Shown: positions 33,889 through 60,339 of the stretch, one piece after another
How the letters are laid out: each line of letters starts with the position of its first letter
How positions within the stretch are numbered: the stretch's first letter is position 1
Assembly (NCBI GenBank): GCA_001793095.1
Contig: MGHG01000009.1
Coordinates: forward strand, 90,391 to 154,390
Direction: 5' to 3'
Length of the DNA: 64,000 bases
DNA from: Candidatus Woesebacteria bacterium RIFCSPLOWO2_01_FULL_39_23
Lineage (GTDB): Bacteria; Patescibacteriota; Microgenomatia; UBA8517
Translations under genes and position numbers: made by a program
The notes under the pieces: model-generated
Databases searched by the model: none
What the model saw: the letters and a program-made list of their open reading frames with translations, nothing else
Told to the model about the DNA's origin: nothing

Positions 33889-33894
33889 GATCGG

Positions 33895-41038: not shown

Positions 41039-42364
41039 TTAATTTTGTAATAAAGCTTTCGATAATAATAAATGGTGATATCTTCGTGCGAAACGGTGAG
41101 CTTCGTTTCTAATTCTTTGGACGAGATATTTTGCCGGCGGAGATGCTTTTATCAGCTGGAATCTGTATTTATCGAAAGATTTTATCGGTATAACGAGCAT
41201 TTCTTCTCTTTTGGCGATACCGAAAACAGGTATGGCGTACTCAGAAAAAATGGTGTTCATCGCAGACGCTTGAGATTTTCCTCCATCGACCAACACTAAA
41301 TCAGGCTTACCCCACTTTTTAAAATATTTCAGTCTTCTACCGGCAACTTCACTTAAAGAACTAATGTCGTTATCACCACGGTTTCGTCTTATTTTAAAGT
41401 GCCTGTATAGTTTTTTTTCCGGAACCCCCCCAATAAAAGTAACCATTGAAGCCGCAGGGTAGGAGGAAGCAAGGTGTGCAACATCGTAACATTCAATTCG
41501 ATTAATTTTATCGACTTTAATGTAATTATGTAATATCCGATGTAAATGCTCTAATTCGAAGTTAATAATATCTTCCGCAAAGTTAGGGTTTTTTATAAAT
41601 TCATCGATTTGATTTATCGGCTGGGTAAGGTAATCCAATCTTTTTATTTTTTCTCTGACCCGTATGGCATTCTCATAATCGTTTAAAGTAGAATACTCGT
41701 CCATTTCGGATTTTAGATCTTTTATAACTCTTGAAAATTTACCCGATAAAATAGTTTTTACAGATTTGATATTAGTCAAATATAACCTTTTCTGAAATAA
41801 TATTTCTTCACCATTTTCCAAATTTTCTATATCATTTGGACACGGATTACAAAGTTTTATTTGCTTATACAGGCATGCTTTATGTCCTATTGTATGTTGA
41901 GAAAAAGGAAATATTTTTCTCAACATTTTAAGTGTGGAATAAATTGCGGTGGAGTTAGGAAACGGTCCGAAGAGTGCGAGAGACGGTAGTGTATCGTTTT
42001 TTCGAACGGTTAATATTCTCGGGTATTTTTCTTTCGTAATTTTTATATAAAGAGGGTGTTTGTCGTCTTTGAGGGCTGAGTTGTAAAAAGGGTCCAATTT
42101 TCTTACCATTTTTGCTTCTAATAAAAGTGACTCAAGTTCACTCATGACTTGTATTATGGATAGATGGTCTGCTTTGGATATCATTTCTTTTGTTTTAGGT
42201 AATAGTTTATTTCCGTAGTATGATCGGAGTCTGGCTTTGAGGTTTTTTGCTTTGCCAACATATAAAGCAACATGTTTTTTATCTGAAAATATATATATTC
42301 CGGGACCTTCCGGGAGGGTAGAAAGATTAATTTCAGATAAATTAATATTAATGAATCCTCGCAT
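41039..42364 (-). CDS. uvrC: Excinuclease ABC subunit C, short form lacking the C-terminal (HhH)2
   Basis: GIY-YIG (GIYIFSDKKHVALYVGKAKNLKARL), Cys-rich CLYKQIKLCNPC and RNase-H-like DLVLVDGGKSQ. 441 aa. Its stop overlaps the start of the upstream operon gene. Confidence 0.7.
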   Translation of the reverse strand: MRGFININLSEINLSTLPEGPGIYIFSDKKHVALYVGKAKNLKARLRSYYGNKLLPKTKEMISKADHLSIIQVMSELESLLLEAKMVRKLDPFYNSALKDDKHPLYIKITKEKYPRILTVRKNDTLPSLALFGPFPNSTAIYSTLKMLRKIFPFSQHTIGHKACLYKQIKLCNPCPNDIENLENGEEILFQKRLYLTNIKSVKTILSGKFSRVIKDLKSEMDEYSTLNDYENAIRVREKIKRLDYLTQPINQIDEFIKNPNFAEDIINFELEHLHRILHNYIKVDKINRIECYDVAHLASSYPAASMVTFIGGVPEKKLYRHFKIRRNRGDNDISSLSEVAGRRLKYFKKWGKPDLVLVDGGKSQASAMNTIFSEYAIPVFGIAKREEMLVIPIKSFDKYRFQLIKASPPAKYLVQRIRNEAHRFARRYHHLLLSKALLQN

Positions 42365-44225
42365 GCTTTTTTTTGTTAATTTTAACTAAAGATGTAAAAA
42401 TAACTACGATAAAGAACAAAAACATGCTTATAATTTGAAAGAGTAAGTCCTGATTGTGTAGAGTTGGAATTTCGATGGATTTATTATACGCTTCGACTTT
42501 AATTACTTTAGGTGTTTTTTTTGCTAACAATGAAAAAGGAATGGTTAAATTTTTTTGATAATTGCCAAAAGGCGGTAGTGTTTCAATACCGATGTCTTCA
42601 AAGTGATTATTATCAAAATATATTTTTATAGACGTATTATAAACAGTAACTGAGCCGGTATTCTCTAATTTTAGATTTACCTTTCGGTCAACGAAAAACG
42701 TTTTACTGTAAGATCCCGTAACGGTGATATCTTCATGTCTGTCCGTGGGCAGTTGACTGAATCCTACAAAAACATCCTTTTGTGGGTTACTGCCAAGTTT
42801 ATATGAGCCTGCAGATACAGGACTTTCTGAACTTACGCCATGAATAACAAAAGCGAAGTGCCTTAAATCAAATTTATTAAAGTAATCTATCCCGCTTGTT
42901 GATCCCCAAGTTGGATCGACAGGGACCCAGGCTTTTAGTTCATCGTTCCAGTATTCGGGCCATGAATGCAGAACATCGTTAACAAGTGATAAGGGTTGTA
43001 TTTGCGGATTTTCAGTATAAGCGTAACCGTTTATCTCTCTCGCTGGAATACCAGCTGCTCGTGATAAGGTTATAAAAAGATCGGTAAATTCCATACATAT
43101 AGCGTTTTGTTTGTCAAAGAGAACTGCTTTCGCCCCCAATCTTTGAGTTTTTTCACTTATTTTTGCGGAATTGTACTTTAAATTTTGCGTCACAAAGTTG
43201 TAGATTGCTTCAGGGGTTTTAAGCTCTTTTGCGAGGTTTTGAATATTCGTATCGTCTACCTCCCAGTATTTTTGAGGTTTCAAATTTGCAAAAAGTTCAA
43301 TCGGCATCGGGGTTAAATATTTTCTCGGATTTGCAAACACTTGAACGTCACCACTAACCTCAACATCTATTCTCTCTTTGGGCTTAAGGTTATAAATGGC
43401 TATCCAATTTCCGTCTTTATCGGTAACAATATTTACGGGTTTTGGAGAAATGTTTGTGTAGTACATCCTTTGGTATGACGTGTCAGGCGGTATGCTAATT
43501 TCAACAGGATCATATTTATTTTTAGTGTTTTCTAAATGGTATCCCAACTTGAAAGAAAATACCTGAAATGTACCAAAGCCTGCAACTATCCCTGAGGTTT
43601 CCATATTTTTTTTGTTATACACATAAGTTAAGCTATTTTCTGTTTCAGATACTGTACCTGGATTAGGTGAAATATATGCTTCGTTGCCGAAAGACTTAGG
43701 AACGATAATCGATATTGAATAGTCTCTATAAGAGCCAGCATCACCCACCTTAGGAATCGAAATTTCCCAAACCTCCCCGGATTTCCGGGCGAAATTGTTT
43801 GATGTATAAATAATTTCAAGAAGTCTTTTTTTTCCTTTACCCACGACTTTATCATCGAAGTTAATCGTGAGCGTTAAATTATCCCCGTCTTTATTTTGTA
43901 TTACATTTAGTTCATGACCGTTTTCTATAGCCTTTAAGTCGCTTAGATTTATATTATTTAAATTGAGATTATATTGCAGCGAATACTTTTCTGTAACTTT
44001 ATTTTCTATTGTAATCTCATTTGTAACGCTAGTTTTTCCGTCGCCATTAATGGAATAAGAAATATGCAAATCAGCGTCAAAGTAATCATCGGCTAAGGCA
44101 ACGCTGGTAAATATAAAAAAATTAAATAAAAGAAATATTACTAAAGTTATTATTTTCTTATACATGTTAAAGTGTATTTGAGAGGAACTTTGCAGTGTGC
44201 GAACCTTTAATTTTTTTGATGTCAT
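42348..44225 (-). CDS. Transglutaminase-like (Cys-His-Asp) domain protein with N- and C-terminal TM
   Basis: Core CMEFTDLF..L.RAAGIPAR..NGY. 625 aa. Embedded in the uvrBA-uvrC operon. Confidence 0.55.
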   Translation of the reverse strand: MTSKKLKVRTLQSSSQIHFNMYKKIITLVIFLLFNFFIFTSVALADDYFDADLHISYSINGDGKTSVTNEITIENKVTEKYSLQYNLNLNNINLSDLKAIENGHELNVIQNKDGDNLTLTINFDDKVVGKGKKRLLEIIYTSNNFARKSGEVWEISIPKVGDAGSYRDYSISIIVPKSFGNEAYISPNPGTVSETENSLTYVYNKKNMETSGIVAGFGTFQVFSFKLGYHLENTKNKYDPVEISIPPDTSYQRMYYTNISPKPVNIVTDKDGNWIAIYNLKPKERIDVEVSGDVQVFANPRKYLTPMPIELFANLKPQKYWEVDDTNIQNLAKELKTPEAIYNFVTQNLKYNSAKISEKTQRLGAKAVLFDKQNAICMEFTDLFITLSRAAGIPAREINGYAYTENPQIQPLSLVNDVLHSWPEYWNDELKAWVPVDPTWGSTSGIDYFNKFDLRHFAFVIHGVSSESPVSAGSYKLGSNPQKDVFVGFSQLPTDRHEDITVTGSYSKTFFVDRKVNLKLENTGSVTVYNTSIKIYFDNNHFEDIGIETLPPFGNYQKNLTIPFSLLAKKTPKVIKVEAYNKSIEIPTLHNQDLLFQIISMFLFFIVVIFTSLVKINKKKHARIH

Positions 44226-47169
44226 TAGGAGTACCTTGTGCGATAATTTCTCCTCCTTTTTCTCCTCCTTCAGGGCCTAAATCTATAATCCAGTCGGCAT
44301 TTTTTATGACATCAAGATTGTGTTCAATAACATAAACACTGTTTCCTTTTGATACTAATCTTTTTAATACTCTCAGAAGCTTTTCAACGTCTGAGAAATG
44401 AAGTCCTGTTGTCGGCTCATCAAGTATATAAGCCGTTCTCCCCGTCGCCTTTTTTGTCAGTTCGGATGATAATTTAACCCTTTGTGCTTCACCACCTGAT
44501 AAAGTCGTCGCCGACTGGCCAAGTTCAATGTACCCCAAACCCACCTCTTGTAGCGTTGACAACTTGGATACAATTTTGGGATGGTTGTGAAAAAATTCTA
44601 AGGATTCGTCAACCGACATTTTTAACACGTCGGCAATGTTTTTACCTTTATAACCTATCTCCAAAGTTTGTGTATTATAACGAGTCCCTTTGCATATATC
44701 GCACGTAATCCAAATGTCACTCATAAATTGCATTTCAAATCTCTCTTGACCTTGGCCTTCGCATGCTTCGCAGCGACCACCCTTCATATTAAATGAAAAT
44801 CGGCTCTTTTTAAATCCTGCAGCACGTGCCTCGTGAGTAAAACTGAAAACGTCTCTAATGCTATCGAAAACTTTTGTGTATGTTGCGGGGTTACTTCGGG
44901 GAGTTCTGCCTATTGGAGATTGGTCGATTAAGATTACTTTATCTATTTTTTCCAAGCCTTCAATTGTTTTATATGTACCAACATCTCCCCTAAATCTGGA
45001 GTTAAATTCACGCTCCATCGCAGCATACAGAGTTTCAACAAGAAGGGTGGATTTGCCGGAACCGGAAACTCCGGTGATTACAACTAATTTACTTAATGGG
45101 AAAGTAACATTAATGTTTTTTAGATTATACTGTGAGCAACCAAAGATTGTAAGTGACTGGTGATTGGTGGATTTTGAAAGGTGATTGGTGATATGTGATT
45201 GGTTGCTTGCAGTACTTGTGCTACTTGTTATACCTGCGCTACTTTTTGATATATCAATTTTTTTCTTCCCGCTCAAATACAGTCCGGTAATGGATTTTGC
45301 GTTAGTGGATATTTCAAAAGGAGTTCCTGCAGCAATTACGGAGCCGCCGAGCTTGCCTGCTCCCGGACCGAAGTCAAAAATATAATCTGATTGAGTCATC
45401 ATTTCTCTGTCGTGTTCGACAACGATTATTGAATTACCTAAATCCCTTAATTTTTTAAGGGTATCTATTAATTTTTGGTTATCCTTTTGGTGTAGACCAA
45501 CTGTTGGTTCATCGAGTACATAAAGAACGCCAGTTAAGCCAGATCCAATTTGACTAGCTAAACGGATTCTTTGGGCTTCGCCTCCAGAAAGCGATCCTGC
45601 GTTTCTGTCAAGCGTCAAATAATTCAAACCGACTGAAATTAAGAAACTCAGTCTCAATAATATTTCCTTTAAAATTTCATTTGATATATTTATTTCCCGG
45701 GAATTAAGTGGCGACGTACCATTTGTAAGAAGTATGTTAATCCACGAGTAAGCACCCCCGATGGTGAAAGAACTAACTTTGGCGATTGAGAGTTTATTAA
45801 TTGTTACGCTTAGCGACTCCTTTTTGAGTCGAGTACCATGACAATCCGGGCAAATATTTTCGCGCATATATTTTTCAATTTCCGATCTAACCCAATCCGA
45901 AGTACTATCCTTGTGCTTTCTTTCAAGCTCAGGCATTATGCCCGAAAACGCTTCATAAATTTTAGTTACTCTCCCGAATCTATTCGTTCCTTCAACTTCG
46001 TACACTTTATCTGCGGTTCCGGCTAGCAGAAGATTTTTTGCATCACTACTCAGTAATTTAATAGGCAGTCTTGTATCAATATCATAATCGAGGCAGACTT
46101 TATTAATTAGTCTTGAGTACCAGGTGTCGTGTTCAAACATATTAGAAAACGGTAATATTCCACCTTCGCGTATACTAATTTCAGGCGAAAAAACGAGGTT
46201 ACTGTCAATCTTAAGAATTTTCCCTATCCCCGAGCAGGTAGCACATGCTCCGTGAGGAGAATTAAAAGAGAATGATCTGGGTTCGATTTCTGTAATTTGA
46301 ATATTGTCATTTGGGCAAGCAAACTTTTCAGAAAAGAGATGATCGTCGAATTTTTTTGGAAACTCGGGCATAACCAGTGCGTCATCATTGACCTCAGTCG
46401 CAATAATTTTACCGTCAGACAATTTTAATGCCTGTTCAATCGAATCTGTAAGCCGTGCTTTTAAATTATCGGCAAATATTTTGTTTTTTAAATCTTTGAA
46501 AGAAAATGAGATTTTATCAATAACTGCCTCTATTGTGTGTTTATTGGTTTTAATAAGAAAAAAATCCTCGCCAGTATTTTTAATGATATTATCAACCCTA
46601 AGTTGTTTGTAGCCTTTTGATTTAAGGTTGACGAAAAGTGAACTAAACTCACCCTTTTTGTCGCTTATGACGGGAGATAAAATTAAAATCCTGACGATCC
46701 TTTTGTCTTTAGCTTTATCCAATAATAATTTTAGTAATGAGCTTACAATTTCATCGACCGTCTGGCTGGCTATTTCTCTTCCGCAGATAGGACAATGGGG
46801 GTGACCGATGCGCGAAAATAAAAGCCTTAAATAATCGTAAATCTCGGTAACTGTACCTACGGTTGAGCGAGGATTGCGTGAAGTTGTTTTTTGATCAATT
46901 GAAATTGCCGGAGATAAACCTTCTATTAAATCGATATCCGGTTTTTCCATAATCCCTAAGAACTGCCTTGCATACGTCGAGAGACTTTCGACGTAGCGTC
47001 TTTGACCCTCGGCGTATATGGTGTCAAATGCAAGCGAACTTTTTCCACTTCCCGAGACACCCGTAAAAACGACAATTTTATTTTTGGGTATATCCAGATC
47101 GATATTTTTTAGATTATGCTGTCTCGCACCTCTTATACGTATTGTATTTTCCATATCATCGGACGCCAC
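44167..47169 (-). CDS. uvrA: Excinuclease ABC subunit A with a ~35-aa low-complexity insertion in the inter-domain linker
   Basis: Two ABC modules (GVSGSGKSSLA / GVSGSGKSTLL; LSGGEAQR x2) and zinc-finger CxxC pairs. 1000 aa. Confidence 0.9.
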   Translation of the reverse strand: MASDDMENTIRIRGARQHNLKNIDLDIPKNKIVVFTGVSGSGKSSLAFDTIYAEGQRRYVESLSTYARQFLGIMEKPDIDLIEGLSPAISIDQKTTSRNPRSTVGTVTEIYDYLRLLFSRIGHPHCPICGREIASQTVDEIVSSLLKLLLDKAKDKRIVRILILSPVISDKKGEFSSLFVNLKSKGYKQLRVDNIIKNTGEDFFLIKTNKHTIEAVIDKISFSFKDLKNKIFADNLKARLTDSIEQALKLSDGKIIATEVNDDALVMPEFPKKFDDHLFSEKFACPNDNIQITEIEPRSFSFNSPHGACATCSGIGKILKIDSNLVFSPEISIREGGILPFSNMFEHDTWYSRLINKVCLDYDIDTRLPIKLLSSDAKNLLLAGTADKVYEVEGTNRFGRVTKIYEAFSGIMPELERKHKDSTSDWVRSEIEKYMRENICPDCHGTRLKKESLSVTINKLSIAKVSSFTIGGAYSWINILLTNGTSPLNSREINISNEILKEILLRLSFLISVGLNYLTLDRNAGSLSGGEAQRIRLASQIGSGLTGVLYVLDEPTVGLHQKDNQKLIDTLKKLRDLGNSIIVVEHDREMMTQSDYIFDFGPGAGKLGGSVIAAGTPFEISTNAKSITGLYLSGKKKIDISKSSAGITSSTSTASNQSHITNHLSKSTNHQSLTIFGCSQYNLKNINVTFPLSKLVVITGVSGSGKSTLLVETLYAAMEREFNSRFRGDVGTYKTIEGLEKIDKVILIDQSPIGRTPRSNPATYTKVFDSIRDVFSFTHEARAAGFKKSRFSFNMKGGRCEACEGQGQERFEMQFMSDIWITCDICKGTRYNTQTLEIGYKGKNIADVLKMSVDESLEFFHNHPKIVSKLSTLQEVGLGYIELGQSATTLSGGEAQRVKLSSELTKKATGRTAYILDEPTTGLHFSDVEKLLRVLKRLVSKGNSVYVIEHNLDVIKNADWIIDLGPEGGEKGGEIIAQGTPNDIKKIKGSHTAKFLSNTL

Positions 47170-47218: not shown

Positions 47219-49306
47219 TCAAAGTTCCAGTTCTTTTATTTTGTCTCTTATCACGGCCGCGAGTTCGAAGTTCAAATCTTGTGCCGCTATTTTCATTTCT
47301 CTTCTTAACCTGGTGATTAACCTTTGTTTATCAATCGGCGCTAAACTTTCCGTGTCAATATCAGGCAGTGTTTCGAAATGTGATAAGTCACGCTTGAAAA
47401 GTTTCTCGACATCGCTGTCTTCTTCTTCGTCAACAAGTCTTTCACGGATAGGTTTTTCTATTGATTTCGGTACAATACCGTATTTTTTGTTCATTTCTCT
47501 TTGGAATTTTCTTCTTCTGTCAATTTCATCCAAGGCTCTTTTCATGGAATCGGTTTTCTTATCGGCATATAAAATTACTTTTCCATTTACGTGTCGTGCG
47601 GCGCGCCCCATCGTTTGTGTTAAAGATACTTCGCTTCTTAAGAAGCCTTCTTTATCTGCGTCAAGAATAGCGACTAAAGACACCTCAGGTAAATCTAGCC
47701 CTTCGCGCAGAAGATTAACTCCGACAATACAATCGTAATTTCCCTTTCTTAAATCCTCCAGTATATTAGTACGCTCGAGAGTTGCGATATCGCTATGTAA
47801 ATAATGGACATGTATGCCTTGTTCTTTCAGGAAATTTGATAAATCTTCAGCTGTCTTTTTAGTCAAAGTTGTAATAAGGGCGCGTTCCTTATTTTTATCC
47901 TTTGGCGGGTTAGCGCGAATTTTTATTTCCTCGATAACGTCTTTTACCTGGGTTGCGGTTGGTCTTATATCGACTTTAGGGTCAGGAATACCTGTCGGTC
48001 TTAAGAGTTGTTGCACTACTCCAATGTTTTTGTTATTTAGCCTCTTAGTTTTTGAGTTTTTTAATTTTAAAGCATCATCATTAGCCATATTAATTTCCCA
48101 AGGTGAGGGTGTTGCTGAGGTTGCAATAAAACCCGGAATTTTTCGTACAAATTCTTCAAACATCAAAGGGCGGTTGTCTAATGCAGCTGGAAGCCTGAAA
48201 CCATAATCGATCAGTGTTTTTTTGCGTGATACATCACCGATGTACATACCCCTGATTTGAGGAAAAGTTATGTGACTTTCATCGATGAAAAGTAGCCAGT
48301 CGTTTTTATATGGTTCACTGAAATAATCTAATAGCGTGAAGGGGGGATCGCCCGGATTTCTTCCGTCGAAATAGCGTGAATAGTTTTCAATGCCTTTAAC
48401 GTAACCCACCTCTTTGATCATTTCCAGATCGTACGTAACCCTTTGTTTAAGACGGTATGCTTCTAGTATTTTTCCGATTTTTGTTAATTCATGACATCTT
48501 TTATTAAGATCCGACTCGATCATGTTAAAAGTGTCCTTATTTTTCGCGGGATCGGTAATGTAATGTTTTGCTGGGTATAGTACGTATTTGTCAATATTTT
48601 CTGAAGGTTGAATATTATCTCCGGTAACTGTGTTAATGATATCAATATTTAATATTTTATCGGTATCAAGGATAATTCTTAAACCTTCGTCTTTATAGGC
48701 AGGATAGATGTCTATCGTATCCCCTCGTACTCTGAAAGTTCCTCTCCTGAAGCCGAAATCACCCCTTTCATATTGAAGATCAATCAGTCTGTCGATTATT
48801 TGTAAGCGATTGATTTTCATGCCTTTAACAAATTCAAAAATGAATTTGCCGTATTCACGAGGGGAACCGATATTATAGATACAGGATACTGAAGCAACGA
48901 CGATAGTATCGGATCTTGTTAACAAATTTGAAGTTGCAGCAAGTCGTAATTTATCAATTAACTCATTAATATCAGCGTCTTTTTCGATATACGTATCGGT
49001 TGACGGTATATACGCTTCGGGTTGGTAAAAATCATAGTATGAAACAAAATATGAGACCGCATTATTCGGAAAAAAGTCCCGAAACTCCTGATAAAGTTGT
49101 GCTGCCAACGTTTTATTATGAGAAAGGATCAGGGCGGGTTTTTGTAAACGCTCGATAACATTGGCAACGGTAAATGTTTTTCCGGAGCCTGTAACTCCTA
49201 GAAGTACCTGACGGTTAATTCCTTGAAGATGGCGTTCAACTAGAGAATTAATTGCTTTTTCCTGATCCGGTATCGGTTTATAGTTCGTTTGAAGTTTAAA
49301 TTGCAT
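47219..49306 (-). CDS. uvrB: Excinuclease ABC subunit B
   Basis: Helicase motifs GVTGSGKT and DESH, a beta-hairpin region and a C-terminal UVR coiled coil (KIKELEL). 695 aa. Confidence 0.9.
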   Translation of the reverse strand: MQFKLQTNYKPIPDQEKAINSLVERHLQGINRQVLLGVTGSGKTFTVANVIERLQKPALILSHNKTLAAQLYQEFRDFFPNNAVSYFVSYYDFYQPEAYIPSTDTYIEKDADINELIDKLRLAATSNLLTRSDTIVVASVSCIYNIGSPREYGKFIFEFVKGMKINRLQIIDRLIDLQYERGDFGFRRGTFRVRGDTIDIYPAYKDEGLRIILDTDKILNIDIINTVTGDNIQPSENIDKYVLYPAKHYITDPAKNKDTFNMIESDLNKRCHELTKIGKILEAYRLKQRVTYDLEMIKEVGYVKGIENYSRYFDGRNPGDPPFTLLDYFSEPYKNDWLLFIDESHITFPQIRGMYIGDVSRKKTLIDYGFRLPAALDNRPLMFEEFVRKIPGFIATSATPSPWEINMANDDALKLKNSKTKRLNNKNIGVVQQLLRPTGIPDPKVDIRPTATQVKDVIEEIKIRANPPKDKNKERALITTLTKKTAEDLSNFLKEQGIHVHYLHSDIATLERTNILEDLRKGNYDCIVGVNLLREGLDLPEVSLVAILDADKEGFLRSEVSLTQTMGRAARHVNGKVILYADKKTDSMKRALDEIDRRRKFQREMNKKYGIVPKSIEKPIRERLVDEEEDSDVEKLFKRDLSHFETLPDIDTESLAPIDKQRLITRLRREMKIAAQDLNFELAAVIRDKIKELEL

Positions 49307-49417
49307 ATTATTATCCCGAAACTATACCGAAAATTATACCATATGGTTGTTATCTACTTTCTTTGAGCGGTTGCAAACATATTTATCATGGGTATAACAT
49401 GTAAACGAAAGAAAAAC

Positions 49418-50680
49418 ATGGACAGCAAAATTAGATCTATTAAAGCGAGAGAAATATTAAGCTCAAACGGTTTACCGACACTTGAAACAACTGTCTTGTG
49501 CGCTAATGGTACAAATTCTTCTGTTTCTATTCCCTATGGAGAATCTGCCGGTAAATACGAGGCTGTGACGATTTTTGATGAAGATAAGTCAAGATATGAA
49601 GGCTACGGCATGCTTAAGGCAGTCAAAATTGTAGACGAAATTATATCCCCTCAACTTGCGGGAGTTGATGTAACCGATCAAAAACAGATTGATCAGAAAC
49701 TTTTTGATTTAGACCCAACACCACAAAAAACTAATTTGGGCGGTAATAGTCTGTTGAGTGTTTCTCTTGCGTGTGCTAAAACTGCCAGCGTTATCGAAAA
49801 GCTGCCTCTTTATATTTATATTCAAAAAACTTACGGATTCGATGGTGGTATTACTAACATGCCTAAACCAAACATGGTCGTGTTAGAAGGAGGAAAACAT
49901 GCTGATAATTCAACAGATTTTCAGGAATATTCTGTTTCAGTAATCGGAAAATTTAACTGTTCTGATTCTGTGAGAGCCGGTATAGAAATATACAGATCTT
50001 TAGGGCGTGAGCTAAAGCTTAACGGTTTCAATATTAATGTCGGAGCAGAGGGTGCGTATGCGGCGGTCTCAATGAAATCGAACATTGACCCTTTGCTATA
50101 TATAAAAAATGCAATAGAAAAAACTAAATATATTCCCGAAAAAGACGTAGGAATTTCACTCGATCCTGCCGCTTCTGAATTTTACGAATCGGGTTTTTAT
50201 AATTTGTCTAAAGATCAGAAAAAATTTAATTCATCGGAGATGATTACTTATTACGAAAATCTTTTAGATAATTATCCGATAATTTCGATAGAAGACGGAT
50301 TGGCAGAGGAGGATTGGGACAACTGGAAGCCTTTATTTACGAAACTCAGTGAAAAAATAATGATCGTAGGTGATGATCTAACGGTAACCCAGGAAAAAAG
50401 ATTAAAAAGAGCGATCGACGAAAAGACGATAAATTCAATAATAATTAAGCCTAATCAGGCGGGAACCTTAACTGAGACTATGGCGACAGTCATGTTGGCT
50501 AAAGATAATAATATTAAAACAATAGTTTCGCACCGCGGAGGTGGCGAAACGACTGATACTTTTATTATAGATTTAGCTGTAGCAATAGGAGCGGAATATG
50601 TTAAGGTCGGTCCAACCAGGGGCGAACGAACGCAAAAATATAATCGATTGATGGAAATAGCCGCCGAATTAAATCTGTAA
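49418..50680 (+). CDS. eno: Enolase (paralog 1, more divergent)
   Basis: IKAREILSSNGLPTLE..., KPNQAGTLTET, SHRGGGETTD. The start is moved to the Met at 49418 (MDSKIRSIKAREIL). Confidence 0.75.
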   Translation: MDSKIRSIKAREILSSNGLPTLETTVLCANGTNSSVSIPYGESAGKYEAVTIFDEDKSRYEGYGMLKAVKIVDEIISPQLAGVDVTDQKQIDQKLFDLDPTPQKTNLGGNSLLSVSLACAKTASVIEKLPLYIYIQKTYGFDGGITNMPKPNMVVLEGGKHADNSTDFQEYSVSVIGKFNCSDSVRAGIEIYRSLGRELKLNGFNINVGAEGAYAAVSMKSNIDPLLYIKNAIEKTKYIPEKDVGISLDPAASEFYESGFYNLSKDQKKFNSSEMITYYENLLDNYPIISIEDGLAEEDWDNWKPLFTKLSEKIMIVGDDLTVTQEKRLKRAIDEKTINSIIIKPNQAGTLTETMATVMLAKDNNIKTIVSHRGGGETTDTFIIDLAVAIGAEYVKVGPTRGERTQKYNRLMEIAAELNL

Positions 50681-50701
50681 TTTTCTTCTTATATTTCCCA
50701 C

Positions 50702-50730
50702 TTGACATATTCGGGTTTTGTTAGTATATT
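50702..50730 (+). promoter_or_regulatory. lexA promoter (TTGACA-N17-TATATT)
   Basis: Near-consensus hexamers about 80 bp upstream of the lexA ATG. Confidence 0.5.
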
Positions 50731-50742
50731 GATTTAACTCAT

Positions 50743-50792
50743 AACTTAGAACTCAAATGTTAAAACTAAAATACAATTTTGAGTTATAAGTT
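50743..50792. promoter_or_regulatory. 15-bp inverted repeat AACTTAGAACTCAAA ... TTTGAGTTATAAGTT (20-bp spacer) between the lexA promoter and start; candidate LexA operator
   Basis: 14 of 15 positions are complementary. The repeat lies in the promoter-proximal leader of the autoregulated repressor gene. Confidence 0.4.
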
Positions 50793-50811
50793 TCTAGTTT
50801 TGTGTTGACTT

Positions 50812-51435
50812 ATGGCACCAGTAATTTACAAACGCCAAGGACAGATATTAGATTTTATCAGACAACATATTCAATCTACCGGTTCAGCCCCCACATTAAA
50901 GCAAATAGCAGAGGCAATCGGGGTTTCTTCACTCGCTACAGTACACGAGCATTTAACCACGCTTGAAGAAAAAGGTTTAATTAAACGAAAATACGGAAAA
51001 AATAGATCTATAAAACTAGCCGATAATGATATTAATTTTTCACCCGAGGGTATTGCTGTCCCAATTCTTGGATATATTGCAGCGGGGACGCCCATCGAGC
51101 CCTATACTGATCCAAATGCGAGCATGGCAATACCCTACTCTTTCGTTACAGGAACAAAACGCACATTTCTTCTTCAGGTAAAAGGCGAGTCTATGATTGA
51201 AGAACAGATTCGGGATGGCGATTATGTGGTAATTGAGCAGTCTGAGATTGCCAATAATGGAGACATTGTTGTAGCGCTACTTGATAATGGTATGGCAACA
51301 TTGAAACGATTTTTTAAAGAAGCTACACGCATACGACTTGAGCCGGCAAATGCTAAAATGAGTCCTATATTTGTTAAAAATGTAAGAATACAGGGAAAGG
51401 TCGTAGGGCTTATAAGGAAGTACACTAGGAATTGA
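50812..51435 (+). CDS. lexA: LexA repressor (S24 peptidase)
   Basis: N-terminal wHTH (LTTLEEKGLIKRK) and C-terminal S24 with VKGESM and a catalytic K. 207 aa. Confidence 0.85.
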   Translation: MAPVIYKRQGQILDFIRQHIQSTGSAPTLKQIAEAIGVSSLATVHEHLTTLEEKGLIKRKYGKNRSIKLADNDINFSPEGIAVPILGYIAAGTPIEPYTDPNASMAIPYSFVTGTKRTFLLQVKGESMIEEQIRDGDYVVIEQSEIANNGDIVVALLDNGMATLKRFFKEATRIRLEPANAKMSPIFVKNVRIQGKVVGLIRKYTRN

Positions 51436-52075
51436 CTTCCCCTTTTTTTCTTTTAGATTTAGCAACCTCTAGTAAAATTGGAAATAGTGAAATAATTATT
51501 ATTACGCCAATAACTATTTCGAAATTATTCTTAACAAAAGCTATATTACCGAAATAATAACCTCCAAAGACAAAAATGGAAGTCCACAGAAATCCGCCAA
51601 CGATATTGAATATTATAAATTTTGTGTACTGCATGATGCCAACGCCGGCCACAAAAGGTGCAAATGTTCGGATTATCGGAACAAAGCGTGCAAGAATAAT
51701 TGTTTTTCCTCCGTGCTTAGTGTAAAATGCCTTAGTCTTATCTAAATAATCTTTTTTTATAAATTTAGGGTCTTTTTTAAATACGGCCGGACCTATTTTG
51801 TAACCGATCCAATAATTTACTGTATCTCCAAGAACAGCAGCAATAAAAAGCACGAGAAATAAAAGATAGATATTCATCGAGCCGAGTGCTGCTAAGGTAC
51901 CTGCTGCAAAAAGTATCGAATCTCCCGGAAGAAAGGGCGTAATAACAAAACCGGTTTCCATAAAAATTACAAAAAATAAAACGACATATACTCCTACCCC
52001 GACATGTGAAATTAATATCGATAAATAGTTATCAAGATGAAGTAAGATGTCGACAAGATAGGAAAAATTTATCAT
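51425..52075 (-). CDS. DedA family membrane protein
   Basis: The VTPFLPGDSILFAAG motif is a DedA/SNARE-associated signature. About 6 TM helices. Confidence 0.7.
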   Translation of the reverse strand: MINFSYLVDILLHLDNYLSILISHVGVGVYVVLFFVIFMETGFVITPFLPGDSILFAAGTLAALGSMNIYLLFLVLFIAAVLGDTVNYWIGYKIGPAVFKKDPKFIKKDYLDKTKAFYTKHGGKTIILARFVPIIRTFAPFVAGVGIMQYTKFIIFNIVGGFLWTSIFVFGGYYFGNIAFVKNNFEIVIGVIIIISLFPILLEVAKSKRKKGEVNS

Positions 52076-52079
52076 GAAG

Positions 52080-53351
52080 TTACATCCGACCGCTTAGAAG
52101 TTCAACTTCGATTGCAGATAAGCGATTATATTTAGCGACCCTTTCTCCCCGCGACGGAGCACCAAATTTGACAAAATCCGCTCCAATACCTACAGCGAAA
52201 TCTGCTATAAACCATTCGTTAGTTTCTCCGGAACGATGAGAGACAATTATTTTCCACGAAGACGCAAGTGCTTTTGAGATAACCCTTAACGTTTCCGTAA
52301 TTGTTCCTAATTGATTTGGTTTGACAAGTATTGCATTACAGGCTTTCTCTTTAATCGCTTTGACTACTCTTTCCGGATTTGTCGCGAGCAGGTCATCACC
52401 GACAACGGTTAGTTGCTCAGACATCTCAGTATAAAGCTTTTTCCAGCTATTCCAGGCATCTTCCTGAAAAGCGTCTTCGAGTATTGCTAGATGATACTGA
52501 TTATTTAAGGTTTTATAGTATTCAAGCAAATCATCATCAGTCAAAGGAGACGATTTATCCCTTATTGAGTAATTACCATTTTTATAGAAGACAGATGCGG
52601 CAGCATCAAGACCGAGAAAGACATCGCGACCCAATTGATATGGGGTTTCTTTAATTGATTCAACGAGTATTTCGAAAGCGTCAGCATTAGTAAAAAGATT
52701 GGGGGCATATCCGCCCTCGTCACCAACAGAATGAATTGCTCCCCGTCTCTTAAGGTTGTCGCCGATAGTCATGTAAGTTTCGACGCCCATTCTGAGTCCT
52801 TCGCTGAATTTTTTGGAGGTTGCTGGTATTACATGGAATTCCTGAAAATCCAGATTACCAGCACCATGTAATCCGCCATTTATCATGTTAAAAATAGGAG
52901 TTGGTATGTGTTCTTTTGCTTTGATACCGAATTTAGCAGCCATTTGGTTAATGTAGGAGTATAAGGTTTTACCAGCAGAAAGTGATCCAGCCTTTGCGGT
53001 AGCTATCGAGACTGCGAGGATTGCGTTAGCACCGTATTTTGATTTATTTTTTGTTCCGTCGGTATCGATGAGTTTTTTGTCTATTACTTCCTGGTCGATT
53101 GGATCCATGCCTATAAGCACCTGACCTAAGATATTATTTACATTGTTAACCGCTTTTAATACACCCTTACCGTGATATCTTGAAGTGTCCTGATCTCTAA
53201 GCTCAAGAGAATCGTATTTTCCGGTCGGTGTAGCTGACGGTACTGAGGCAATAGCCACTTGTCCGGTATCTAAAAGACAAGACGCTTCAACAGTAGGAAT
53301 GGCTCGCGAATCCAAAATTTCTCTTGCCCATATTTTTGATATTTTTGACAT
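52080..53351 (-). CDS. eno: Enolase (paralog 2, canonical)
   Basis: SKIWAREILDSR, KPNQLGTITET, SHRSGETNEWFIADFAVG. 423 aa. Confidence 0.85.
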   Translation of the reverse strand: MSKISKIWAREILDSRAIPTVEASCLLDTGQVAIASVPSATPTGKYDSLELRDQDTSRYHGKGVLKAVNNVNNILGQVLIGMDPIDQEVIDKKLIDTDGTKNKSKYGANAILAVSIATAKAGSLSAGKTLYSYINQMAAKFGIKAKEHIPTPIFNMINGGLHGAGNLDFQEFHVIPATSKKFSEGLRMGVETYMTIGDNLKRRGAIHSVGDEGGYAPNLFTNADAFEILVESIKETPYQLGRDVFLGLDAAASVFYKNGNYSIRDKSSPLTDDDLLEYYKTLNNQYHLAILEDAFQEDAWNSWKKLYTEMSEQLTVVGDDLLATNPERVVKAIKEKACNAILVKPNQLGTITETLRVISKALASSWKIIVSHRSGETNEWFIADFAVGIGADFVKFGAPSRGERVAKYNRLSAIEVELLSGRM

Positions 53352-53353: not shown

Positions 53354-55639
53354 TTACTTGTGCGAATTTAATGCAATTGCTTTTTCTGATTCATATATTA
53401 CACTTCTAACACGATCAATAGCATCAGGATTTACGGAAATGCTTGTTACTCCATATTTTATCAGTTTTTTAACAAAGTCTTCATAAACCGAGGGTGCCTG
53501 TCCGCAAATTGACGAGGTGACATTGGCGGCATTACAGTGTTTAATTACGCGCCGTAATGACCATAAAACAGCTGGAGATCTCTCATTAAATGATTCAGCA
53601 ACTTCGGCGTTATCTCTATCGGTTCCTGTTATAAGCATCGTGAGGTCATTCGATCCTATCGATACCCCATCAATGCCGACTTTTAAAAACTCGTCAATTA
53701 AAATAACATTTATCGGTATTTCAACCATCATCCAAAATTTAAATGTAGGACTGTCGAAAAGTCCAACCGAAGTGACAATTCTTCTGACCCTAGAAAGCTC
53801 CTCTGGCGATCTGACAAATGGAACCATTAGCCACAAATTTTTATATTTTTCGCGAACAATTTTTATTGCCTGTAGCTCTAGGTTAAATACTTCCGGATTT
53901 GAAATATAGCGAAATGCACCCCTAAAACCTAACATTGGATTTGCTTCCTTCGGCTCCCAGGCCTCTCCTCCCGGAAGCGAGCGATATTCATTAGTTTTAA
54001 AGTCTGTCGTCCGATATACAACAGGTCGGGGATCGAACGCCTTACAAAAAGTAATCATATCCGAAGCAAGTTTTTGAATAAAATGCTCTTGTTTTTTCTC
54101 TTTAATGGCTTCTTTTGGATGAATTCCTATATTTGCTATCATAAATTCAGCTCGCAATAGCCCGACGCCATCGATATTAAACTTTGATACCTCAAGTGCT
54201 CTTTCGGGTTCGGCTAAATTAACATACAAACGCGTGGCAGTCTTTAATTTTTTAAGTTTTAATTTTTTATGAGGTTTTACATTAATTTCTTTGACAATAT
54301 TGCTTCCTTCATAAATAAAACCCTTACTACCGTCAACAGTTACGATCGTATTTTCTTTTAATTTTTTAGTAGCCTCTTTTGTGCCTACGACACAAGGTAC
54401 GCCCAGCTCCCTACTGACAATCGCTGCATGCGAAGTTAAACCGCCTTCATCTGTTACAATTCCTGCGGCCTTTTTCATCGCCGGAACATAATCGGGAGAG
54501 GTCATTTTAGCTACGAGTATATCGCCCTGTTTTACTTTTTCAATTTCTTTAGGACTCTTTAACACCTTAACGATTCCTGTTCCGATACCTGGACTTGCAG
54601 CGGTACCAACAAGTATCGGTATTGCCGCCCCCATCATGGTCTCCTTTTTGATTTTACTTATTTTTTTGACATCACCTATTGTTGTTACCGGGCGTGTTTG
54701 GACTATATAGATTTTGCCTTTTTCCTTAGCCCACTCGGTATCTTGAGGGAAGTAATAATGTTTCTGAAGTTTATCGGATATTTTTGCTAATTCAATTATG
54801 TCGCTATCACTAATTTTTTGCTTTGTTTGTAATTTCGAAGGGACTTTTGCTTCTTTAGTCACTAACCCTTTTCGTATATAAGCCACTTTTTGGTCGGCAA
54901 TTTCTTTTGAAAGTACTGAATAGGTATCTTTTTGAACAACAAACTTATCCGGAACAACCGATCCCTGAACAATATATTCTCCCAGTCCCCAGATTGCTTC
55001 GATAATGATTTTATCTTTTTCATTTGTAACTGGATCGATTGAAAACATAACACCCGACGCTTCGGACTGAATCATTTTTTGAATAATGACCGAGATCTTT
55101 ACTTTATCGTGATCAATTTTATTCTGTACTCGATAAAATATTGCTCTGGCTGTAAAAAGAGAAGCCCAACATTCTCTTACGGCCATAAGTAAGTTATTGA
55201 AGCCTTTGATATTTAGGAAGGTTGCCTGTTGTCCGGCGAATGAGGCACCGGGTAAATCTTCAGCTGTAGCGGATGACCTGACAGCGACAAACGCCTGTTT
55301 GAAAGTTCCGGACAATTTTTTGTAAGCAGATGTAATTTCGCGGGCAACATCATCAGGTATTTGTGAATTATTAACAATTTTTTGTATTTTTTTGGAAGCT
55401 AGATCAAGTTGTTCGGCGTCATTAACATCAACTTGTTTAAGGAGGTCATTTATTTGTTCTGTAATCCGGTTAAAATCCAAAAACTTTTGGTATGAAGCGA
55501 CGGTTATTGCAAAGCCGCCGGGCACCGGAAAACCAGCTTTTGCCATTTCTCCGAGGTTCGCACCCTTTCCTCCTACAAGAGCAAGGTCATTTTTATCGAT
55601 ATCTTTAAAGAATAAAATTAGGTCAGTATTTAATGTCAT
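53354..55639 (-). CDS. ppsA: Phosphoenolpyruvate synthase (pyruvate, water dikinase)
   Basis: N-terminal ATP-grasp-like ...GGKGANLGEM..., phospho-His domain GGLTSHAAIVSRELGVPCVVG and a C-terminal PEP-utilising TIM barrel. 761 aa. Confidence 0.8.
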   Translation of the reverse strand: MTLNTDLILFFKDIDKNDLALVGGKGANLGEMAKAGFPVPGGFAITVASYQKFLDFNRITEQINDLLKQVDVNDAEQLDLASKKIQKIVNNSQIPDDVAREITSAYKKLSGTFKQAFVAVRSSATAEDLPGASFAGQQATFLNIKGFNNLLMAVRECWASLFTARAIFYRVQNKIDHDKVKISVIIQKMIQSEASGVMFSIDPVTNEKDKIIIEAIWGLGEYIVQGSVVPDKFVVQKDTYSVLSKEIADQKVAYIRKGLVTKEAKVPSKLQTKQKISDSDIIELAKISDKLQKHYYFPQDTEWAKEKGKIYIVQTRPVTTIGDVKKISKIKKETMMGAAIPILVGTAASPGIGTGIVKVLKSPKEIEKVKQGDILVAKMTSPDYVPAMKKAAGIVTDEGGLTSHAAIVSRELGVPCVVGTKEATKKLKENTIVTVDGSKGFIYEGSNIVKEINVKPHKKLKLKKLKTATRLYVNLAEPERALEVSKFNIDGVGLLRAEFMIANIGIHPKEAIKEKKQEHFIQKLASDMITFCKAFDPRPVVYRTTDFKTNEYRSLPGGEAWEPKEANPMLGFRGAFRYISNPEVFNLELQAIKIVREKYKNLWLMVPFVRSPEELSRVRRIVTSVGLFDSPTFKFWMMVEIPINVILIDEFLKVGIDGVSIGSNDLTMLITGTDRDNAEVAESFNERSPAVLWSLRRVIKHCNAANVTSSICGQAPSVYEDFVKKLIKYGVTSISVNPDAIDRVRSVIYESEKAIALNSHK

Positions 55640-59835: not shown

Positions 59836-60339
59836 CTAACTGGGACCTTTCCTACTCTGAAATACATGTGTCAGGGCTACCGCCAATGCATCGGCAGCAT
59901 TATCAAAATGGGTTTTCTTGTGTGCTTTACTTTTAATATTATTACCTAATATTTTTCTTATAGATCTTTGAACATCTTTCTTATTGGCTCGACCACTACC
60001 GGTTATCATCTTTTTAATTGTTCCGGGTGCGTATTCAACTACTTCTACTTTTGTCTTTGAAGCTGCCAATAAAAGTACACCTTGTGCCTGGCCAACTGCA
60101 ATGGCTGTTTTTGCGTTTGTAGCAAAGAAGATTTTCTCAAACGCAAAGACATGTGGATTATAACTTTTTATAATAGCTAATATTTCTTTATAAATTATTT
60201 CCAGTCGGTTTTCTTTGAAGCCGTTTTTATCAGTTTCTATTAACCCCCAATTAATTACTTTAAAGTCGCCTTTGCCGTTCGTTTCAATTACTCCGTATCC
60301 TGTAGTAGCAGTACCGGGGTCGATACCTAAAATTATCAT
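59836..60339 (-). CDS. ruvC: Holliday junction resolvase RuvC
   Basis: MIILGIDPGTATTGYGVIE... catalytic-Asp N-terminus. 167 aa. Confidence 0.85.
   Translation of the reverse strand: MIILGIDPGTATTGYGVIETNGKGDFKVINWGLIETDKNGFKENRLEIIYKEILAIIKSYNPHVFAFEKIFFATNAKTAIAVGQAQGVLLLAASKTKVEVVEYAPGTIKKMITGSGRANKKDVQRSIRKILGNNIKSKAHKKTHFDNAADALAVALTHVFQSRKGPS

Follow-up and report, generated by a model that had tools for sequence, protein, structure and literature searches.

The LexA motif of Alphaproteobacteria and Acidobacterium is the direct repeat GTTC-N7-GTTC (PMC8565304). LexA motifs of the direct-repeat type have also been published for Patescibacteria, which are named together with Acidobacterium among such cases (PMC7739468). 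In enolases, Ser39, which ligates the second Mg2+, and the L1 loop are key elements of the active site (PMC8495383). Jaffe et al. 2020, in a study of CPR enolases, describe one large monophyletic cluster of Microgenomates enolases and other Microgenomates enolases that group with distant lineages (PMC7304191). Trypanosomatid prozymes partner with or regulate an active paralog (PMC5201418).

A 64,000-nt stretch of the genome of Candidatus Woesebacteria RIFCSPLOWO2_01_FULL_39_23 (the window) contains two enolase genes, eno1 and eno2, next to the SOS repressor gene lexA. The two groupings of Jaffe et al. 2020 match eno2 and eno1, respectively; the co-occurrence of both in one genome, the insertion site between uvrB and lexA and the active-site changes are not described in the accessible text of that paper. 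The arrangement resembles xenologous gene displacement with differential paralog loss, in which a vertically inherited enzyme stands beside an acquired isofunctional homologue and most lineages lose one of the two. As in pseudoenzymes, catalytic residues are repeatedly lost from the resident eno2 where both copies persist, yet its open reading frame is full-length and slowly evolving. Unlike the role of trypanosomatid prozymes, any partnering of eno2 with eno1 or regulation of eno1 by it would be hypothetical, and the inactivity of eno2 is a prediction from sequence. We consider it likely, taking all parts together, that eno1 was gained and is the active enzyme, that eno2 is impaired, that a tandem TTCG repeat serves as the LexA operator and that no SOS box is formed by the inverted repeat of the lexA leader.

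Organization of the SOS and lower-glycolysis locus

The neighbourhood is a core SOS and lower-glycolysis locus, in which uvrA-uvrB are divergent from lexA, and lexA converges on the string pgm-pgi-ppsA-eno2-dedA (Table 1). Divergent uvrB and lexA are found in nearly all Woesebacteria loci, and eno2 belongs to a conserved eno-ppsA-pgi-pgm cluster. The lexA product, 65-90% identical across Woesebacteria, retains the AAG cleavage site, the GESM serine and the LKR lysine; the 3' ends of lexA and dedA overlap by 11 nt.

Table 1. Genes and sequence elements of the locus, in window coordinates.
Feature	Position	Strand	Description
dinB-operon promoter TTGATT-N17-AATAAT	3098-3126	+	TTCGGGTTTACTTCGGG (3102-3118) in spacer
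Second exact TTCG-N7-TTCG	4925-4939	-	8 nt 5' of the Y-family polymerase start codon (ATG)
Y-family polymerase gene	4947-6305		Pfam IMS and IMS_C
Archaeal-type PEPC (PEPcase_2)	19774-21282		About 28 kb away
uvrA	44167-47169		After uvrB
uvrB	47219-49306	-	Pfam UvrB_inter, Helicase_C, UvrB and UVR domains
Candidate LexA box of uvrB, TTCGGTATAGTTTCGGG	49315-49331	-	TTCGG in tandem with an 11-bp period; immediately 3' of the -10
uvrB extended -10 TGGTATAAT overlapping palindrome ACCATATGGT	49333-49347	-	Read from sequence
Putative eno1 promoter TTGCAA-N16-TATAAC	49371-49398	+	Read from sequence
eno1	49418-50680	+	420 aa; SHRGGGE-subfamily enolase
lexA promoter TTGACA-N17-TATATT	50702-50730	+	11/12 consensus matches
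Candidate LexA box of lexA, TTCGGGTTTTGTTAG	50710-50724	+	Fills promoter spacer
Inverted repeat, lexA 5' leader	50736-50799	+	Core 50743-50757 / 50778-50792
lexA	50812-51435	+	LexA_DNA_bind and Peptidase_S24; TIGR00498, 200 bits
dedA	51425-52075	-	VTT domain; closes the pgm-pgi-ppsA-eno2-dedA string
eno2	52080-53351	-	423 aa; resident, vertically inherited Woesebacteria enolase
eno2 codons 38-47 (PSATPTGKYD), catalytic L1 loop	53211-53240	-	G37A, S39P, E44D (yeast numbering)
ppsA-like PEP synthase / pyruvate-water dikinase	53354-55639	-	PPDK_N, PEP-utilizers and PEP-utilizers_C domains

The preliminary description of this DNA reported two enolase genes on opposite strands, 1.4 kb apart, with lexA and dedA between them, and this layout was borne out by open reading frames, coordinates and profile matches. 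Both products contain Enolase_N and Enolase_C domains and exceed the cut-off of 300 bits for the NCBIfam enolase equivalog TIGR01060 (446 bits for eno1 and 480 bits for eno2); their mutual identity is 41%. The motifs SHRGGGETTD and SHRSGETNEWFIADFAVG, given for the enolases called divergent and canonical, were both found. Of the two genes said to lie nearby, ppsA does adjoin eno2, and the archaeal-type PEPC gene is too remote for this wording.

Origin and catalytic state of the two enolases

In about 50 species, orthologues of eno2 (64-74% identical) are syntenic with ppsA; eno1 occurs in a few species only, and eno2 is therefore regarded as the resident copy. All eno1-positive species fall inside one subclade of the uvrB+lexA+ppsA tree, with which the eno1 tree agrees. 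The order uvrB|eno1|lexA|...|eno2|ppsA was found in five of the six species for which the context was read; the contig of the sixth contains uvrB|eno1, and lexA and eno2 were not seen on that contig. We infer that the ancestor of this subclade may have gained eno1 from a different enolase subfamily, with insertion between the divergent uvrB and lexA, and that the gene would then have been vertically inherited and lost in most descendants.

Judging by its sequence, eno1 belongs to a large and conserved subfamily of enolases, recognisable by SHRGGGE, and is not unusual within it. Residues S39, H159, Q167, E168, E211, D246, E295, D320, K345, H373, R374 and K396 are present and invariant among 111 members of its clade, from which eno1 deviates at a single one of 81 near-invariant columns. 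In comparison with canonical enolases (TIGR01060; for example Chloroflexus aurantiacus 4yws, E. coli and yeast Eno1), both copies have the two-domain structure, the acid-base pair K345/E211 and the ligands of Mg(I). The eno1 subfamily differs by the absence of Ser375, where Gly and one inserted residue stand instead (SHRGGGE), by T-L-x-D in place of ELRD, and by GxEGAYA in place of GDEGG, the Asp of which is changed; the nearest solved structure is at best about 49% identical to eno1. Genes of this subfamily are located in pgk-eno-iPGM-iPGM-pta-ackA-PFOR operons of other Patescibacteria and of many metagenome contigs, and this operon context points to a working glycolytic enolase. With its full catalytic set, eno1 most likely provides the 2-phosphoglycerate dehydratase activity in this genome.

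In eno2, three substitutions, G37A, S39P and E44D, are located in the catalytic L1 loop. Among 119 close homologues used for comparison, all three are unique to this species: 118 of 119 orthologues have Ser at position 39, and the conservation of G37 and E44 is similar. They are the only deviations of eno2 at 149 near-invariant columns, and the probability of their clustering by chance is about 2e-5; the closest relative, the eno2 of locus L170, reads PSGASTGKYE at the L1 loop. Position 39 is Ser at all 49 loci without eno1 and P, T, I, S and S at those with eno1, that is, changed in three of five (Fisher P = 4e-4; the five species with both enolases are mutually related, and eno1 absence was scored around lexA only, so that copies elsewhere in those genomes are possible). 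The eno2 of one of these loci, L167, additionally carries E211G and E44G. The replacement of the Mg(II)-ligating Ser39 by Pro, together with two further L1-loop changes in an otherwise conserved protein, suggests that eno2 is probably catalytically impaired; the enzyme may also tolerate S39P or compensate for it, for instance through the neighbouring Thr at the A38 position. The roles assigned in the preliminary description are therefore reversed, since the copy called divergent has intact catalytic residues and the copy called canonical has the damaged L1 loop. Its suggestion that one paralog may have a moonlighting or regulatory role is retained in the sense that loss or change of the catalytic role is plausible for one copy, eno2 and not eno1. 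The resident gene would be either under functional displacement or retained for a non-catalytic or altered role.

Two other readings of the enolase pair were considered. Both genes could encode fully active isozymes differing only in kinetics or regulation, with the altered L1 loop of eno2 tolerated. This is consistent with the retention in eno2 of E168, E211, K345, K396, H373, R374, S375 and all three Mg(I) ligands, with its TIGR01060 score, with its position in a glycolytic operon and with its normal evolutionary rate: overall rate acceleration of the window eno2 relative to its closest relative was not detected, which is equally compatible with a still-functional enzyme. We nevertheless regard the isozyme reading as rather unlikely, given the near-complete conservation of the three altered positions, the role of Ser39 as ligand of the second Mg2+ (PMC8495383), the recurrence of S39 loss only where eno1 is also present and the loss of the catalytic acid E211 in one eno1-carrying genome. 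A neofunctionalised eno1 with a DNA-damage-related or regulatory role instead of a glycolytic one appears improbable. The altered Ser375, ELRD and GDEGG positions and the location between uvrB and lexA, kept in five of the six species, would fit such a role, as would the eno1 of locus L049, to which a separate copy of the lexA-type promoter and box belongs. However, the acid/base and metal residues do not vary, members of the subfamily are encoded in glycolytic operons, and a LexA box is absent from the eno1 promoter in the window, L168 and L169. The putative eno1 promoter itself was unlisted in the consensus scan, its -10 ending in C.

Candidate LexA operator and other promoter elements

The strong lexA promoter reported earlier was confirmed, and its architecture is common to about 55 orthologous promoters. 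Its spacer is filled by an element conserved as TTCGGGTWWTRTTNG in 55 species; with a weight matrix built from 55 lexA promoters, the lexA box scored 24.5, the best value in the window, although its second half-site is degenerate (TTAG). The uvrB box is an exact match to the pattern, and the tandem repeat is also found in orthologous uvrB promoters, with a 172-fold enrichment in the 120 nt preceding uvrB (P ~8e-18). Among outgroup lexA promoters (related LexA, three other phyla), 22 of 23 contain the tandem TTCG repeat (P ~1e-74). Counts of the bare TTCG pattern across the window are non-significant alone; the significance of the repeat follows from its position and cross-species conservation. 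By these sequence comparisons, the conserved candidate SOS element is a tandem TTCG(G)-N7-TTCG at the promoters of lexA, uvrB and the dinB operon. LexA would repress these genes through TTCG(G)-N7-TTCG(G), a direct repeat whose period is 11 bp, located in the spacer (lexA, dinB operon) or just past the -10 (uvrB), where its binding would occlude RNA polymerase.

Similar to the known direct-repeat LexA motifs, the element is tandem and not palindromic, has an 11-bp period, is TTC-based and occurs at promoters of lexA and of genes for DNA repair and translesion synthesis. It differs from GTTC-N7-GTTC in the core, TTCG(G), in which TTC is invariably followed by G and the base preceding TTC varies (C 50%, A 25%, G 10%). 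The LexA motif of Patescibacteria was reportedly described by Sanchez-Osuna et al. in 2017; the present element is likened to it as a direct repeat, not by consensus letters.

That the TTCGGG-containing element instead belongs to the promoter as such, or is bound by a non-LexA regulator, seems very doubtful. The lexA element does lie wholly inside the promoter spacer, and its spacer-like T/A-rich middle is also conserved, but the tandem repeat tracks lexA promoters that otherwise differ in sequence and G+C content between four phyla, follows the -10 at uvrB and has the reverse orientation at dinB, and is associated with the classical SOS set of genes; a direct-repeat LexA motif is also on record for Patescibacteria (PMC7739468).

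The lexA leader was also said to carry a 15-bp inverted repeat that may define the SOS box of the lineage. The repeat exists: the two halves of its core are complementary at 14 of 15 positions and separated by 20 nt, the arms can be lengthened to 22 nt (50736-50757 / 50778-50799) with three AACTNNN units each, and among the short-range inverted repeats of the window it is the longest. As the operator of the lineage, with ACCATATGGT as an alternative operator at uvrB, it is extremely improbable, despite its position 3' of a strong promoter. No further copy was found at any SOS promoter of the window, including uvrB and dinB (up to two mismatches), elsewhere in the window or at any fetched locus, and the repeat is not conserved in the approximately 55 orthologous lexA promoters. 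Orthologous leaders are shorter than 40 nt in 50 of 59 cases despite the high LexA identity, the long ones being unrelated in sequence, and it is the tandem element that is conserved at the lexA, uvrB and dinB promoters. The repeat, restricted to lexA of this species, would represent a species-specific insert in the 5' untranslated leader, forming at most a weak AU-rich RNA hairpin (-16.1 kcal/mol, z = -1.4).

The perfect palindrome ACCATATGGT, reported as abutting the uvrB -10, is present at 49338-49347 and not at 49330-49340, a shift of 8 nt. It was rejected as an operator: perfect 10-bp palindromes are common (113 in the window versus 86 +/- 8 in shuffles), and ACCATATGGT consists of the extended -10 TGGTATAAT, with TATAAT at 49333-49338 on the minus strand, and an upstream half that is not conserved, whereas TGGTATAAT-like -10 elements recur in uvrB orthologues.

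Organization of the locus and features of eno1

Two enolase paralogs surround lexA and dedA, as stated in the preliminary description, with open reading frames as described there. Both eno1, the enolase gene of the SHRGGGE subfamily, and eno2, the resident Woesebacteria-type gene beside ppsA, encode the two-domain architecture of the family (TIGR01060; PF03952 and PF00113) and score above the TIGR01060 cut-off; the two are 41% identical. All gene assignments at the locus are supported by Pfam and NCBIfam. The region is flanked by uvrB-uvrA upstream and by ppsA-pgi-pgm downstream and was independently assembled in many metagenomes. Of the neighbors claimed to lie nearby, ppsA is located directly downstream, but the archaeal-type PEPC gene is 28 kb off.

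Coordinates, strands and supporting scores of genes, promoters and candidate LexA boxes in the window
Feature	Position	Strand	Details
eno1	49418-50680	+	Enolase_N 137 bits, Enolase_C 259 bits; TIGR01060 446 bits (cut-off 300)
lexA	50812-51435	+	PF01726 67.9 bits, PF00717 103.7 bits; TIGR00498 200 bits (cut-off 111)
dedA	51425-52075	-	Pfam/NCBIfam
eno2	52080-53351	-	Pfam enolase domains; TIGR01060 480 bits (cut-off 300)
lexA promoter, TTGACA-N17-TATATT	50702-50730		consensus match 11/12
Candidate LexA box of lexA	50710-50724		between -35 and -10; weight-matrix score 24.5, window maximum
Candidate LexA box of uvrB	49315-49331	-	tandem repeat pattern
Candidate LexA box of the dinB operon, TTCGGGTTTACTTCGGG	3102-3116, repeat to 3118	+	spacer of TTGATT-N17-AATAAT; weight-matrix score 19.5, second best
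ORF, no Pfam match	3211-3471	+	86 aa
ORF, no Pfam match	3499-4134	+	211 aa
DUF3800 gene	4179-4817	+	
Second exact TTCG-N7-TTCG of the dinB operon	4925-4939	opposite strand	8 nt before the polymerase ATG
Y-family polymerase gene, last of the operon	4947-6305	+	IMS and IMS_C

The convergent coding regions of lexA and dedA share 11 nt at their 3' ends (51425-51435), and eno2, ppsA and dedA are spaced by gaps of only 2-4 nt, tight packing that suggests translational coupling. Most of the window's 13 tRNA genes are clustered at 22915-25179 and 33447-35064; these tRNAs were the only Rfam matches at gathering thresholds in the whole window, with no match at the lexA or dinB leaders.

The copy first described as divergent, eno1, retains its catalytic residues. 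The gene encodes the base K345, the acid E211, E168, the Mg ligands D246, E295 and D320, the Mg(II) ligand S39, and H159, H373, R374 and K396 (yeast numbering), and all of these, together with Q167, are invariant in 111 members of the eno1 clade. Of the tested set, only the phosphate-binding Ser375 of SHRSGE is missing, SHRGGGE representing S375G plus a one-residue insertion, invariant in the clade; other clade-wide differences are G213A and the loss of E47 and R49 of ELRD. The signatures of the clade are SHRGGGE(T)TD, VGxEGAYA(P/A) and VP(Y/F)G(T/S)SAGxxEAxT(L/I)xD. Since eno1 has a single deviation across 81 near-invariant clade columns, its sequence is, by prediction, that of an intact enolase. 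Relative to eno2 and the Chloroflexus enolase 4yws, the eno1 clade is monophyletic; 4yws is slightly closer to it (mean identity of 49%) than to eno2 (45%).

Genes of iPGM are located directly downstream of the enolase in 19 of the 29 SHRGGGE-type loci outside Woesebacteria, and in 16 of these 19 they form a tandem pair. In operons of L093 and L096 and of the large Patescibacteria contigs L172 and L173, the order is NiFe-hydrogenase, pgk, eno, two iPGM genes, PTAC, ackA (or ADP-forming acetyl-CoA synthetase) and PFOR. Because these operons encode a route from lower glycolysis to acetate, the SHRGGGE subfamily appears to be the putative housekeeping enolase of these fermenters. The metagenome scan with the eno1 alignment relied on unspecific peptide patterns, and of its 80 loci more than half proved to be canonical enolases from organisms unrelated to these. 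As far as could be found, the SHRGGGE branch and the two-iPGM operons are undescribed within this known enzyme family. Among the metagenome and Patescibacteria contigs (L088-L103, L114-L116, L172, L173), two full-length iPGM paralogs in tandem usually follow the SHRGGGE enolase. The protein P0356 of the eno2 clade bears residues of the eno1 type (N155V, M156L, N158E, S374G) and may represent an intermediate between the two subfamilies or a case of convergence.

A LexA scan of species-representative genomes yielded 56 Woesebacteria/Microgenomates loci, in nearly all of which uvrB and lexA are divergent neighbors and a gene of the eno2 type (64-74% identical) is located beside ppsA downstream. 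Among them, the window species and L049 were the only ones with a gene of the eno1 type between uvrB and lexA. Further look-ups revealed the order uvrB, eno1, lexA, then eno2 and ppsA, also in L083/L087, L167 and L168, and uvrB with eno1 only in the short contig L169. The Woesebacteria eno1 genes form one subclade (seven sequences, 58-67% identical). In the tree of uvrB, lexA and ppsA, all eno1-positive species belong to one Woesebacteria subclade, mixed with eno1-lacking species, and the eno1 tree matches the species tree (L049 groups as sister to L167, and L083 is near L168). The two species most closely related to that of the window, L170 (LexA 90% and eno2 80% identical) and L171, contain the string dedA-eno2-ppsA-pgi-pgm and lack eno1. 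The G+C content and GC3 of eno1 are genome-like; since, in addition, its tree agrees with the species tree, a recent foreign insertion is rejected and the gain is old, and we infer a single old gain, vertical descent and many losses. According to the account of the CPR enolase tree in PMC7304191, one large cluster holds Microgenomates sequences and other Microgenomates sequences group with distant lineages, which fits this history.

Active site of the resident enolase

The L1 loop of eno2 reads PSATPTGKYD versus PSG(A/T)STGxxE in the rest of the clade, the changes G37A, S39P and E44D being unique among 119 sequences. The Mg(II)-ligating Ser39 is thus absent from the window eno2, with Ser in the remaining 118 orthologues. 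K345, E211, E168, D246, E295, D320, H373, R374, S375 and K396 are present. The three substitutions are the sole deviations of eno2 at 149 near-invariant columns, and the chance of all three landing in the L1 loop is ~2e-5. In yeast enolase, the replacement S39A lowers activity roughly 10,000-fold. The second Mg2+ is held by Ser39 and the L1 loop (residues 36-43), both of central importance to the active site (PMC8495383).

Position 39 of eno2 is Ser in all 49 loci without eno1. In the loci with eno1, it is Pro in the window, Thr in L083 (which also has T40N), Ile in L167, and Ser in L168 and L049; the association of a change at this position with the presence of eno1 is significant (Fisher's exact P = 4e-4). 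In the eno2 of L167, the catalytic acid is gone as well (E211G), and E44G is present. In all five eno1-positive species, eno2 deviates at 2-4 near-invariant columns, compared with a background mean of 0.55 and a 95th percentile of 2; in other high-deviation members of the eno2 clade, catalytic residues were not hit.

An assembly error as the source of the loop changes is ruled out, because the identical eno2 protein was found on 27 contigs from several sources. A neutrally decaying pseudogene would also account for lost active-site residues, but is not favored: the reading frame is intact, and Tajima relative-rate tests gave no overall acceleration, either for the window versus L170 (25 vs. 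18-25 unique changes) or for L167 versus L049 (15-16 vs. 11-13). Judged from the sequences, the catalysis-specific constraint on eno2 appears relaxed where eno1 is present, the remainder of the protein being conserved.

Under such relaxed constraint, the window eno2 may be a tolerated loop variant, a recently inactivated gene en route to loss, or a gene retained in a non-catalytic role. A broader form of the last, that in eno1-keeping Woesebacteria the ancestral enolase turned into a pseudo-enolase more than once, kept by purifying selection in the glycolytic operon for a non-catalytic job, is considered unlikely; it is based on losses of S39, E44 and, once, E211 among eno1-positive species. 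The protein could, for example, partner eno1 in a regulatory or structural capacity, or moonlight by binding RNA or protein. The earlier suggestion that one enolase copy has a different role survives in this sense, although it applies to eno2 and not to eno1, the roles being reversed.

A search of the literature on pseudoenzymes or paralogs of enolase gave no directly pertinent hits. As an evolutionary observation, the repeated erosion of the active site of the resident enolase is of modest novelty. The coexisting enolases are a small-scale natural case of gene displacement or of a nascent pseudoenzyme. For metabolic reconstruction of CPR bacteria, a canonical look poorly predicts which paralog works.

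Predicted LexA operator and the lexA leader

The lexA product consists of the LexA winged helix-turn-helix and S24 peptidase domains and scores above the TIGR00498 cut-off. Its translation contains ...YIAAGTPIE..., ...KGESMIE... and ...ATLKRF..., which we take to hold the Ala-Gly cleavage site and the Ser/Lys dyad, as placed by E. coli LexA A84-G85, S119 and K156. LexA is 65-90% identical across these Woesebacteria species, so the operator is expected to be conserved. The lexA upstream regions are alignable at one block only, cTTGACA-NN-TTCGGGTWWTRTTNG-TAtnnt, which consists of the -35 and the -10 and, between them, a 15-bp element whose TTCGGG and TT-G are near-invariant. The strong lexA promoter proposed earlier is present and contains this element in its spacer.

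An exact TTCG-N7-TTCG occurs four times in the window: three copies are in the promoter regions of uvrB (49315-49331) and the dinB operon (3102-3118 and 4925-4939), and one is inside the PEPC coding sequence. Bare counts of TTCG patterns in the 64-kb window are not significant alone. The uvrB promoter, on its own strand, reads TGGTATAAT-TT-TCGGTATAGTTTCGGG-ATAATAAT-ATG; its site scores low with the lexA-trained weight matrix, which had picked up the T/A-rich lexA spacer as well, and half-site patterns were used instead. In 46 Woesebacteria loci (532 kb), 9 of the 14 matches to TT[CT]GG-N6-TT[CT]GG are located no more than 120 nt upstream of uvrB (172-fold, P ~8e-18). The next-closest LexA proteins (44-50% identical) belong to Gemmatimonadota, Vicinamibacteria/Acidobacteriota, Nitrospinota and Longimicrobium, and their lexA promoters are arranged alike (for example, cTTGCAcTTCGGcctgtcTTCGGttagcgt). 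Same-strand TTCG-N7-TTCG was found in 22 of these 23 outgroup lexA promoters, with 33 sites in 3.45 kb versus 10 in 456 kb elsewhere (P ~1e-74).

Since the same repeat recurs at lexA promoters of related LexA proteins and at uvrB and dinB, the TTCG tandem repeat, with its 11-bp period, is the predicted operator of this LexA clade; it would be sited so as to block RNA polymerase. The alphaproteobacterial operator GTTC-N7-GTTC (PMC8565304) is alike, but there the invariant G precedes TTC, and here it follows. According to its citation in PMC7739468, a direct-repeat LexA motif has already been published for Patescibacteria, and the TTCG operator is accordingly treated as already known in kind. 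The motif is usable for the prediction of SOS regulons in uncultured Woesebacteria, Gemmatimonadota, Acidobacteriota and Nitrospinota.

The inverted repeat in the lexA leader (50743-57 / 50778-92), proposed in the preliminary description as the SOS box, is real and extends to 22-nt arms, being the longest short-range inverted repeat in the window, but its operator role is refuted. It spans about +6 to +69 of the transcript and does not contain TTCG. Only its two arms match each other: no other copy was found in the window, including the uvrB and dinB promoters, or in ~170 fetched loci, and the repeat is absent from the other orthologous lexA upstream regions (54 species-representative loci and L083, L167, L168, L170 and L171). 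An attenuator or terminator is unsupported, the terminator scan having detected nothing at this position. As RNA, the repeat reaches -16.1 kcal/mol, equalled by 18 of 200 shuffles (z = -1.4), and a conserved RNA structure is likewise rejected, other leaders being mostly short or unrelated: in 50 of the 59 orthologous loci the lexA leader is shorter than 40 nt, and the nine long ones are heterogeneous. In the closest relative, L170, the lexA leader instead contains a purine/pyrimidine hairpin. We regard the inverted repeat as a leader insert specific to this species and not as the SOS box; in the 5'-UTR it may function as a weak hairpin. For annotation, an inverted repeat beside a strong promoter need not be an SOS box.

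Each arm (50736-50757 and 50778-50799) is composed of three 7-nt periodic AACTNNN units, and the two arms are the only perfect AACTNNN-repeat matches in the window. Similar 7-nt periodic ACT repeats are visible by eye in the lexA leaders of L007, L015/L016 and L017 (e.g., ACTAATN x4 in L015).

The palindrome reported at the uvrB -10 exists as ACCATATGGT, although at 49338-49347, 8 nt from the position first stated. It represents an extended -10 (TGGTATAAT, recurrent in orthologues) joined to an upstream half lacking conservation, and such palindromes are common (113 in the window vs. 86 +/- 8 in shuffles).

In the window, eno1 has a putative weak promoter of its own (TTGCAA-N16-TATAAC, 49371-49398), and the uvrB box lies ~40 nt upstream of its -35. 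No box was found near eno1 in L168 and L169; only in L049 does a duplicated lexA-type promoter with a box precede the gene. For these reasons, the position of eno1 between uvrB and lexA looks like an inherited insertion site and not a regulatory link. The near-identical TTGACAtcTTCGGGTTTATTTA promoter/box copies before eno1 and lexA of L049 are located at 4495-4525 and 5930-5960, and eno1 of this locus may be LexA-regulated.

The dinB operon and other sites

The region 3098-6305 (+) comprises a promoter with TTCGGG-N5-TTCGGG in its spacer and four open reading frames ending in a Y-family polymerase gene, and is a probable SOS operon. A cluster at 41039-47169 contains uvrC, a transglutaminase-like gene, uvrA and uvrB, and ruvC is nearby (59836-60339); the upstream regions of uvrC and ruvC yielded no TTCG tandem repeat. 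The site TTCGGGTAATATATG at 712-747 (+), with a weight-matrix score of 15.7 and a 15-nt inverted repeat with 733-747, probably arose by chance, since it is inside the coding region of a glycosyltransferase-like ORF (669-1865).

Many Gemmatimonadota lexA promoters (L060-L082) contain two successive TTCGG-N6-TTCGG pairs ~26 nt apart upstream of lexA. In the lexA promoters of L168 (3687-3732), L049, L167 and L027, a second, inverted box shares the central TTTGTACAAA, and the resulting TTCG-N7-TTTGTACAAA-N7-CGAA is a composite palindrome of ~34 bp, which suggests binding of two LexA dimers.

The leader of the dinB operon (3126-3205, +) contains a long hairpin with a purine arm and a pyrimidine arm (-36.5 kcal/mol, z = -5.2). 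Homologous hairpins were found in the lexA leaders of two other Woesebacteria, L003 (~5912-5998, 97% identical over 33 nt) and L170 (~2062-2140). This hairpin, found in few copies, may represent a 5'-UTR element that recurs in SOS transcripts or moves among them.
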